Under the pieces are notes generated by a model. That model saw only the letters and a program-made list of their open reading frames with translations, was not told the DNA's origin and ran no database searches. 64,000 nucleotides of DNA from Escherichia coli. GTDB taxonomy: Bacteria > Pseudomonadota > Gammaproteobacteria > Enterobacterales > Enterobacteriaceae. Positions 25,777 through 27,522 of the stretch are shown here, in pieces; positions within the stretch are counted from its first letter, which is position 1; every line of letters starts with the position of its first letter. Made by a program: the position numbers and the translations under genes. The stretch lies in assembly GCF_009931435.1 (NCBI RefSeq), contig NZ_CP043414.1. One strand, given 5' to 3'.

Positions 25777-27522
25777 ATGAAAATGACTTTGCCGTTTAAA
25801 CCCCATGTGCTGGCGCTAATTTGCAGTGCCGGGCTTTGTGCCGCCTCTGCCGGGCTATATATAAAAAGCCGCACAGTGGAAGCGCCTGTGGAAGCGCAAT
25901 CGACACAACTGGCTGCGCCTGACATCACCGCAGTTACGCTTCCTGCAACGGTTTCCGCACCGCCCGTAACGCCCGCCGTCGTTAAAACCGCATTCAGCAC
26001 TGCGCAAATAGATCAATGGGTTGCACCTGTCGCGCTGTACCCCGACTCTCTGCTTTCACAAGTGTTAATGGCATCAACCTATCCGACAAACGTTGCGCAA
26101 GCAGTGCAATGGTCGCACGATAATCCACTTAAACAAGGCGATGCTGCTATTCAGGCGGTATCTGACCAGCCGTGGGACGCCAGCGTCAAATCGCTGGTGG
26201 CTTTTCCGCAATTGATGGCGTTAATGGGCGAAAACCCGCAGTGGGTGCAAAATCTTGGCGACGCATTTCTGGCGCAACCACAGGACGTAATGGACTCGGT
26301 ACAGCGGTTGCGGCAACTGGCGCAACAAACCGGCTCGCTGAAGTCATCAACCGAACAGAAAGTTATTACCACAACGAAGAAAGCTATACCGGTAAAACAG
26401 ACAGTCACGGCTCCCGTCATACCATCCAATACCGTTACAACTGCCAACCCTGTCATTACAGAGCCTGCAACAACCGTCATTTCCATTGAGCCCGCCAATC
26501 CTGATGTGGTCTATATTCCCAACTACAACCCAACCGTGGTTTACGGGAACTGGGCCAATACTGCGTATCCGCCGGTTTATCTGCCACCACCAGCCGGAGA
26601 ACCGTTTGTTGACAGCTTTGTGCGCGGATTCGGCTATAGCATGGGCGTTGCTACCACGTACGCACTATTCAGCAGCATCGACTGGGACGATGACCATCAT
26701 CATGACGATGATGATTATCACCACCACGATGGCGGTCATCGTGACGGTAATGGCTGGCAACACAACGGCGACAACATCAATATCGACGTCAACAATTTCA
26801 ACCGTATCACCGGTGAGCATCTTACTGATAAGAACATGGCATGGCGGCACAATCCAAACTACCGTAATGGTGTGCCCTATCATGATCAGGATATGGCAAA
26901 GCGGTTTCACCAAACCGATGTCAACGGCGGCATGAGCGCCACGCAGTTACCTGCTCCAACACGCGACAGCCAGCGTCAGGCGGCAGCAAGTCAGTTTCAG
27001 CAACGAACACACGCCACACCCGTCATTACGCGAGATACACAACGTCAGGCGGCGGCACAGCGATTTAATGAAGCGGAACACTATGGGAGCTATGACGACT
27101 TCCGCGAGTTCAGCTGTCGCCAACCACTGACCCAGCAACAAAAGGACGCCGCTCGTCAGCGTTATCAGTCGGCCTCTCCTGAGCAGCGCCAGGCAGTCCG
27201 CGAGAGAATGCAGACTAACCCGCAGAACCAGCAGAGAAGAGAAGCGGCACGTGAGCGTATTCAGTCAGCCTCGCCTGAGCAGCGCCAGGCGGTTCGCGAG
27301 AAAATGCAGACTAACCCGCAGAACCAGCAGCGAAGAGAGGCAGCGCGTGAGCGTATACAATCAGCATCACCTGAACAACGTCAGGTTTTTCGGGAGAAAG
27401 TTCAGGAGAGCCGCCCACAACGTCTAAACGACAGTAACCGTACTGCCCGATTGAATAACGAGCAACGGTCAGCAGTACGCGAACGTCTCTCTGAGCACGG
27501 AGCAAGGCGACTGGAAAGGTAA
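25777..27522 (+). CDS. yacH: Secreted repetitive protein (DUF3300-like), unknown function
   Basis: 581-aa ORF; signal peptide MKMTLPFKPHVLALICSAGLCAASA; His/Asp cluster; C-terminal 32-aa tandem repeats. True start uncertain (K-12 annotation is longer as I recall). Confidence 0.75.
   Translation: MKMTLPFKPHVLALICSAGLCAASAGLYIKSRTVEAPVEAQSTQLAAPDITAVTLPATVSAPPVTPAVVKTAFSTAQIDQWVAPVALYPDSLLSQVLMASTYPTNVAQAVQWSHDNPLKQGDAAIQAVSDQPWDASVKSLVAFPQLMALMGENPQWVQNLGDAFLAQPQDVMDSVQRLRQLAQQTGSLKSSTEQKVITTTKKAIPVKQTVTAPVIPSNTVTTANPVITEPATTVISIEPANPDVVYIPNYNPTVVYGNWANTAYPPVYLPPPAGEPFVDSFVRGFGYSMGVATTYALFSSIDWDDDHHHDDDDYHHHDGGHRDGNGWQHNGDNINIDVNNFNRITGEHLTDKNMAWRHNPNYRNGVPYHDQDMAKRFHQTDVNGGMSATQLPAPTRDSQRQAAASQFQQRTHATPVITRDTQRQAAAQRFNEAEHYGSYDDFREFSCRQPLTQQQKDAARQRYQSASPEQRQAVRERMQTNPQNQQRREAARERIQSASPEQRQAVREKMQTNPQNQQRREAARERIQSASPEQRQVFREKVQESRPQRLNDSNRTARLNNEQRSAVRERLSEHGARRLER
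27166..27410 (+). repeat. In-frame 96-bp tandem repeat (about 2.6 copies) in yacH 3' region
   Basis: Repeated peptide R(Y/I)QSASPEQRQAVRE(R/K)MQTNPQNQQRREAARE; DNA period 96 bp (copy starts at about 27166 and 27262). Confidence 0.85.

Follow-up and report, generated by a model that had tools for sequence, protein, structure and literature searches.

A His/Asp-rich tract in Escherichia coli YacH forms an enlarged turn of the DUF3300 domain

The yacH locus and its product

The DNA analysed here is a 64-kb window (64,000 nucleotides) of an Escherichia coli genome. It carries yacH on the + strand at 25777..27522, an open reading frame of 581 aa plus a stop that is flanked by acnB and lpdA, as it is in E. 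coli 50EVA; acnB is also the neighbor at most orthologue loci. The encoded protein belongs to the DUF3300 family, matching PF11737 over aa 75-329 and profile positions 2-227 of 227 (E 4.3e-78, 262.4 bits against a cut-off of 25), and 5,410 of the 5,426 complete genomes of E. coli have this gene, annotated as yacH, with 90-96% identity at the DNA level. The gene name assigned by the first-pass annotation is therefore borne out by both the profile match and the genome annotation. The window protein is 100% identical to a sequence (P0003) present on 177 contigs that bear the label E. coli or Escherichia sp., and no NCBIfam family was found for it. YacH is an E. coli gene product of uncharacterised function, from a family without a characterised member and for whose fold we found no solved structural relative.

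YacH is probably exported to the periplasm. Residues 1-25, MKMTLPFKPHVLALICSAGLCAASA (25777..25851, + strand), form a probable Sec signal peptide, with a putative cleavage site, placed from the sequence, immediately before the following G. Strong hydrophobicity is confined to one N-terminal segment (residues 11-29, Kyte-Doolittle KD(19) 2.04, then ASA before G), and AF2 models residues 9-29 as a helix that leads into a linker of low confidence. We considered whether the Gly-rich segment at 283-301 might be transmembrane, which would place the His/Asp-rich block in the cytoplasm, and rejected this possibility: KD(19) does not exceed 0.78, and AF2 models short strands there, not a helix. Because the N-terminal segment is hydrophobic and residues 283-301 are too weakly hydrophobic for a membrane helix, the periplasm is the likely location. 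The earlier prediction of a periplasmic protein is consistent with this single signal-like segment and with the signal peptides reported for DUF3300 and DUF2950 proteins (PMC4653623). A lipoprotein anchored through Cys16 or Cys21 was also considered and rejected, as the preceding residues (ALI and AGL) do not fit a lipobox. A promoter and terminator scan of 25400-27700 gave counts at or below shuffle expectation.

Outside Escherichia, yacH has a constant companion. A DUF2950 (PF11453) gene follows yacH in 30 of 30 non-Escherichia loci, beginning a few to ~70 bp past the yacH stop; the Rahnella copy matches PF11453 with E 6e-96. Distant DUF3300 genes are likewise followed by DUF2950 genes, and this co-localisation has been described as universal (PMC4653623). 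None of the six Escherichia yacH loci has a DUF2950 gene and the whole 64-kb window contains none; in Escherichia the gap between yacH and the convergent lpdA is only 71 bp. Because the gene is present at all of the other loci and absent from these, Escherichia YacH is the orphaned half of a conserved two-gene module. DUF2950 was lost in the Escherichia lineage, and its loss is no argument against membership of YacH in DUF3300.

The C-terminal tail of YacH is Arg/Gln-rich and helical, with long helices at 396-574 in the AF2 model. It contains a tandem repeat of 96 nt (32 aa) in 2.4 copies (27154..27385, + strand; TRF score 331) that lies outside the His/Asp-rich block. Allele length ranges over 581-662 aa, mostly because the copy number of this repeat differs: the SASPEQRQ motif occurs three times in alleles of 581-584 aa, mostly four times at 616 aa and five times at 648 aa.

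An enlarged turn between two strands

The block itself, DWDDDHHHDDDDYHHHDGGHRDGNGW, is encoded exactly within this reading frame by codons 302-327 (26680-26757, + strand) and contains 7 His and 10 Asp, which together make up 17 of its 26 residues. The His/Asp-rich cluster that the first-pass annotation reported in YacH is real, and its count of seven His was right. Its nine Asp should read ten, and its coordinates, 26681-26760, began 1 nt late and ended 3 nt long. Such enrichment far exceeds what chance would give. When YacH was shuffled 20,000 times, the best 26-residue window held on average 6.3 His and Asp residues (sd 0.94, maximum 11), with none of the shuffles reaching 17, and the runner-up among all open reading frames in the 64-kb window that are 150 aa or longer scores 9.

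The insert proper, DDDHHHDDDDYHHHDGGHRDGNGWQHNGD, comprises aa 304-332 (29 residues, 26686..26772, + strand) and lies between W303 and N333 of NINIDV. The upstream anchor, I301-D302-W303 (26677..26685, + strand), is a short beta-strand, modelled by AF2 at 299-301, and its W303 is nearly invariant. The downstream anchor, N333-INIDV338 (26773..26790, + strand), is a beta-strand of alternating Asn/Asp and Ile/Val residues, modelled at 334-337, with the family consensus NINVNxYN. An RNA or antisense feature beneath the block was considered and rejected, Rfam giving sub-threshold noise only, including a miRNA model at E 0.16. On the opposite strand, an 82-aa open reading frame at 26665-26913 is a low-complexity mirror of the block (IIIIVMMMVIV).

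To place the block in its family we aligned 124 DUF3300 proteins, made up of the window protein, 22 species-genome orthologues and 101 representatives of 50%-identity clusters. The consensus in this region is ALWGxxDW-xxGxx-NINVNxYN, and at least 90% of the aligned proteins retain W303. In 71 of the 92 non-enterobacterial proteins exactly four residues separate this Trp from the first Ile or Val of the next strand, which follows the pattern [IV]-[DN]-[IV]-[DN]. These short turns include GGGD, GHND, HHGD and HRHS, and 38 of the 71 have at least one His. In the 25 Enterobacterales orthologues, the same turn is 17-38 residues long and made up of Asp, His, Gly, Tyr and Asn, and not one of the 25 has reverted to four. 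This difference in length, together with the position of the block between the two short strands in the AF2 model, identifies it as an enlarged beta-hairpin turn of the DUF3300 domain, the enlargement being that of Enterobacterales. The turn is also long in nine other, unrelated DUF3300 representatives, where it is mostly rich in Asp, His, Gly, Tyr or Trp.

Conservation of the block, which the first-pass annotation had put forward as a check, therefore depends on the breadth of the comparison. An Asp/His-rich run follows the invariant IDW in 25 of 25 Enterobacterales orthologues, but the block is absent from most DUF3300 proteins. His is also sparse in some enterobacterial members, with one residue in Buttiauxella agrestis and three each in Yokenella and Enterobacter sp. 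ENT03. These low counts show that His is not indispensable in the block.

The block is predicted to be a disordered loop. The AF2 model of YacH has a mean pLDDT of 76, with ~95 in the DUF3300 core, and values in the block fall below 50 at residues 307-309 and 315-331; the loop holds 7-8 His. Given the predicted disorder, the loop would be expected to be exposed at the surface. Against PDB sequences, the block together with its flanks gave a single chance match (E 0.65).

Mutability and residue constraint of the tract

The DNA encoding the loop carries the marks of repeated resizing. Tandem Repeats Finder detects an internal duplication, DDHHHDD / DDYHHHD, at 26689..26731 (+ strand), with a period of 21 nt (7 codons), 2.0 copies and 77% matches, and Rahnella species have DHHDD(Y) repeats inside the block. 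Among 119 E. coli protein variants the block takes 21 forms, compared with 2, 8, 10 and 13 for flanks of equal length. Most differences between the variants are indels of a single His, Asp or Asn codon, and the resulting loops have 29-35 residues after W303 up to NINI (31-37 from D302). The tract is the most indel-variable segment of YacH in E. coli. In S. Typhimurium 14028s, UK-1, SL1344, D23580 and 69M the gene is a pseudogene, disrupted by loss of the 8 bp GATCATCA from the codon string gac-gat-cat-cac at Asp284 (PMC3391293; PMC10048834). The sole occurrence of DDHH in the S. arizonae orthologue falls within the block. Taken together, the duplication, the codon indels in E. coli and the S. 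Typhimurium deletion make the tract a mutational soft spot, and this fragility explains the recurrent pseudogene lesion in S. Typhimurium. We found no sign of reversible phase variation of the tract.

In these respects the tract resembles slippage-prone codon tracts in other bacterial genes, sharing with them a tandem duplication, length polymorphism among strains and occasional inactivation by frameshift. It is unlike a plain slippage tract in that its repeat is imperfect, with mixed synonymous codons, its residue types are constrained and the order of its runs is conserved.

The constraint is seen most clearly in codon usage. In 37 blocks, totalling 948 residues, 77% of residues are encoded by NAY codons (Asp, His, Asn, Tyr). 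Gly makes up a further 17%, and Glu and Lys do not occur. Across 20 lineages, GAN, CAN and AAN codons in the block end in a pyrimidine 330 times and in a purine 7 times, whereas the same genes outside the block have 1376 pyrimidines and 1684 purines (Fisher p = 7e-95). Purine-ending codons, those for Glu, Gln and Lys, thus account for 7/337 in the block, compared with 55% in the rest of the genes. The pyrimidines themselves are mixed, at T:C = 174:156, so third positions have turned over. The residues reached by single-step changes, Ala, Pro, Thr, Val, Leu, Ile and Phe, are nearly missing from the blocks, as are Ser and hydrophobic residues in general.

The order of the runs is retained from Escherichia to Rahnella and Ewingella, that is, across two Enterobacterales families: IDW, DDD(D), a His run, DDD, Tyr/Trp, His/Asp, GG, an aromatic residue, His, GGG and Asn. 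Run lengths vary. Free reshuffling of residue order within the block was considered and rejected, as the alignment shows the order of the runs to be conserved while their lengths change. With the pyrimidine bias confined to the block, T and C scrambled and the run order conserved, the inserted residues do not show the pattern of neutral evolution. The codon patterns instead point to purifying selection on residue type, favoring Asp over Glu and His over Gln. Fast turnover by slippage could contribute to the NAY-only composition without selection for function.

Metal context and interpretation

The first-pass annotation placed yacH within a few kb of cueO and allowed that the proximity may be coincidental, a caution that the locus upholds. 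The two genes are 5.8 kb apart, with five genes of other transcription units (yacC, speE, speD, yacL and acnB) and strand changes between them, and the only perfect CueR palindrome in the window, CCTTCC-N7-GGAAGG at 20009-20027, lies beside cueO. A consensus scan of the window gave no CueR palindrome near 25400-25776. Similar consensus scans found no Zur box near yacH within 3 mismatches (the lone match in the window, at 34942, is at chance level) and no Fur box upstream of yacH at the stringency used. A scan with a simple CpxR consensus gave nothing near yacH; the published CpxR site was derived from a scoring matrix. Elsewhere, the neighbors of DUF3300 genes are DUF2950 genes, with no metal-related gene among them.

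What has been published on yacH concerns envelope stress. There, yacH is reported to be regulated by CpxR and Rob (PMC9600279; PMC7537768), its deletion improves survival in protamine, and protamine and cecropin A lower its transcription (PMC9600279); yacH is also listed among genes whose expression changes after exposure to a cathelicidin peptide (PMC6737244). The titles, abstracts and passages that we consulted on yacH, DUF3300 and DUF2950 describe no metal role and no functional study. In sum, we found nothing in support of a link between the YacH loop and metal homeostasis or cueO.

Comparison with known metal-binding segments is nevertheless instructive. In E. coli and its relatives, the C-terminal tail of SlyD, the RcnA loop and the His stretches of HypB and Hpn are disordered His runs with Asp that bind several metal ions (Ni, Co or Zn) per chain; these segments are cytoplasmic or cytoplasm-facing and belong to nickel or cobalt pathways. 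The likeness of YacH to them lies in His runs interspersed with Asp, but YacH is probably exported and has no nickel or cobalt genetic context. The His-rich loops of ZnuA contain Glu as well as Asp, whereas the YacH block has no Glu, and this absence suggests that the residue filter may be structural (anti-helix) or mutational and not related to metals.

In other respects the ZnuA loop is a close parallel. It is about 20 residues long, rich in His and acidic residues, periplasmic and variable between species, as the YacH block, also predicted to be disordered and probably periplasmic, would be; crystals show it disordered, two additional Zn sites of lower affinity depend on it, and its role has been called enigmatic (PMC8900738). 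ZnuA differs from YacH in having a solute-binding fold with a separate high-affinity site and zinc regulation, where YacH has the DUF3300 fold and no Zur box upstream. PA4063 of Pseudomonas aeruginosa has disordered His-rich loops, one of them between two strands, which bind Zn with micromolar affinity, the ligands being one Asp and two or three His (PMC8561739). Like PA4063, YacH comes from an otherwise uncharacterised family and has a predicted disordered His-rich loop between two beta-strands; the ferredoxin-like fold and zinc-starvation operon of PA4063 are not found in YacH. Of the features expected of a zinc-handling protein, YacH therefore has a His-rich loop predicted to be flexible, but neither a cluster A-I or PA4063-like fold nor, by box scan, Zur regulation. 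By analogy, ZnuA and PA4063, with their periplasmic His-rich loops, would seem to offer the nearest functional parallels to the block, although YacH belongs to neither family.

Based on these observations, we propose, with a probability of roughly 0.55, that the block is an enlarged, disordered DUF3300 turn, selected for residue type, that chelates metals loosely and modulates the function of YacH in the envelope. The four-residue turn has grown to about 17-38 residues in enteric bacteria and is resized by tandem duplication and in-frame indels, the units being Gly codons and NAY codons, which encode Asp (GAY), His (CAY), Asn (AAY) and Tyr (TAY). Selection on residue type would have retained the run order DDD-HHH-DDD-Y-HH-D-GG-aromatic-H-GGG-N. 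By analogy with known loops, such a flexible, strongly acidic, imidazole-studded segment should chelate Zn, Ni, Cu and Co loosely, with roughly micromolar affinity. Its net charge would also shift with pH, being about -8 at pH 7.5 and about -2 at pH 5.5. In this way the loop would modulate the envelope function of YacH and would not be a dedicated metal-homeostasis device. Points that weigh against this proposal are the inconstant number of His, the lack of Glu, a possible share of slippage in the NAY-only composition, the tolerance of yacH inactivation in S. Typhimurium and published phenotypes that do not concern metals. Binding of Ni, Zn or Cu by the loop peptide in vitro is, in our judgement, quite likely; that metal homeostasis is the physiological role of the loop is unlikely.

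Several alternatives to this proposal deserve consideration. The enlargement could be a functionless by-product, a surface turn lengthened by replication slippage in a short run of GAY and CAY codons and merely tolerated. The 21-nt internal duplication and the 21 length-polymorphic E. coli variants speak for such an origin, as do the frameshift hot spot in S. Typhimurium, the variable number of His, the independent expansion of the same turn in nine unrelated DUF3300 representatives and the fact that all abundant residues other than Gly are NAY-coded. A tolerated by-product is nonetheless hard to reconcile with third positions that are scrambled between T and C yet almost never purine, with the near absence of single-step neighbors, with a run order kept across two families and with the failure of any orthologue to return to a four-residue turn; we consider this explanation unlikely. 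A dedicated periplasmic Ni, Zn or Cu site, with YacH taking part in metal homeostasis and possibly acting with cueO, would account for the His/Asp-rich composition, the probable export and the protein-level constraint on His and Asp, and ZnuA and PA4063 provide precedents for disordered Zn-binding His-rich loops in periplasmic proteins. However, no Zur, Fur or CueR box was found upstream of yacH in the consensus scans, cueO is separated by five genes, and DUF3300 genes elsewhere neighbor DUF2950 and not metal genes. His falls to 1-3 in some orthologues, most DUF3300 proteins lack the block, Glu is wholly missing, unlike in known zinc loops, and the published yacH phenotypes concern protamine, cecropin and Cpx/Rob stress, not metals. 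Such a dedicated site is accordingly an improbable reading, somewhat more so than a tolerated by-product.

The loop might instead act as a pH or charge switch, with titration of its His residues altering contact between the acidic loop and either the basic C-terminal helices of YacH or cationic antimicrobial peptides. With generic pKa values, the computed charge of the block shifts from -8.4 at pH 7.5 to -2.4 at pH 5.5, and C-terminal residues 380-581 carry about +13. The protamine and cecropin A effects and the cathelicidin response (PMC9600279; PMC6737244) would fit a switch of this kind. Against it, the scheme is wholly inferential, no acid phenotype of yacH has been reported and contact between the basic tail and the loop is hypothetical. 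We regard a switch as improbable, slightly more so than a dedicated metal site. A still bolder idea, which we hold to be highly improbable, combines these elements: the loop would be a metal- or acid-triggered switch on a widespread and uncharacterised two-gene envelope module, DUF3300-DUF2950, that tunes susceptibility to cationic antimicrobial peptides, coupling the module to periplasmic Zn, Cu, Ni or pH in enterobacteria, with Escherichia keeping the DUF3300 half.

The preferred reading, an enlarged turn that is selectively maintained yet mutationally fragile, offers a handle for experiments, such as a swap of the His/Asp run for GGGD. A loop that proved to bind metal or sense pH would be one more of the poorly understood periplasmic His-rich loops; one that did neither would be a useful case of residue-type selection acting on a disordered insert. 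On present evidence the feature is an ordinary one, a further example of a His-rich disordered periplasmic loop or of a codon-repeat insert, and the biology of YacH is illuminated by the loss of DUF2950 in Escherichia no less than by the block.

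A DUF2950 partner gene missing from Escherichia

A gene encoding a DUF2950 protein (PF11453) lies directly 3' of yacH in all 30 of the non-Escherichia loci compared (L007-L036), and it likewise directly follows the DUF3300 gene at the distant loci L038 and L039. None of the six Escherichia loci carries this gene, nor was it found anywhere within the 64-kb window, in which the yacH-lpdA gap at 27523-27593 is the site lacking it. The DUF3300 and DUF2950 genes form a conserved two-gene module whose partner gene has been lost by Escherichia.

Two records bearing a yacH-DUF2950 pair have labels that seem at odds with their content: a 'Chryseobacterium sp. 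18061' contig (L033) and a 'Bordetella parapertussis' MAG contig (L036). The former, which carries an acnB that is 94% identical together with a His/Asp block of enterobacterial type, is likely contaminated or mislabelled. The same may hold for L036, on weaker evidence than for L033; there, no acnB match was found, and the turn is three residues long with no His/Asp block.

Variation, truncation and inactivation of yacH

Across the yacH region (25600-27600), identity between the window and the complete E. coli genomes is just 90-95% in almost every case and peaks at 95.9%. At the protein level, exact matches to the window's YacH carry the labels E. coli, Escherichia sp. MOD1-EC6021 and the like. 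This pattern of sequence identity suggests that the window derives from a divergent Escherichia lineage. Length differences between YacH alleles mostly reflect the copy number of a tandem repeat with a 96-nt (32-aa) unit, present in 2.4 copies at 27154-27385, within the Arg/Gln-rich helical C-terminal tail. Repeat copy number differs between E. coli alleles of 581-584 aa, ~616 aa and 648-662 aa.

In most sequenced S. Typhimurium strains (14028s, UK-1, SL1344, D23580 and 69M), yacH (STM0157) is a pseudogene because of an 8-bp deletion, GATCATCA, at Asp284 within the His/Asp codon tract (PMC3391293, PMC10048834); in LT2 the gene is intact according to the literature. The deletion site corresponds to approximately 26686-26700 in the window. 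Truncated readings were also obtained from E. coli E69 (L006; 392 aa) and Rahnella inusitata (L030; 406 aa), and the E69 tblastn match covers 2.6 kb, a span that suggests an insertion. We regard these two truncations as further signs that yacH is dispensable in some strains.

Enlarged turns outside the enterobacteria

The four-residue turn after the conserved Trp is also enlarged in nine non-enterobacterial DUF3300 representatives in alignment A1 (P0129, P0174, P0186, P0192, P0209, P0224, P0228, P0241 and P0258). These expansions, mostly rich in Asp, His, Gly, Tyr and Trp (e.g. AHHEVYDHHDGHHDGHGGY and GGGWGGGWGWGGWGGWHGGN), apparently arose independently.

A CueR-type palindrome upstream of cueO

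The intergenic region between cueO and yacC contains a perfect CueR-type palindrome, CCTTCCCCTTACGGGAAGG, at 20009-20027. This palindrome lies ~55-75 bp 5' of the start inferred for cueO and serves here solely as the positive control for the regulator scan.
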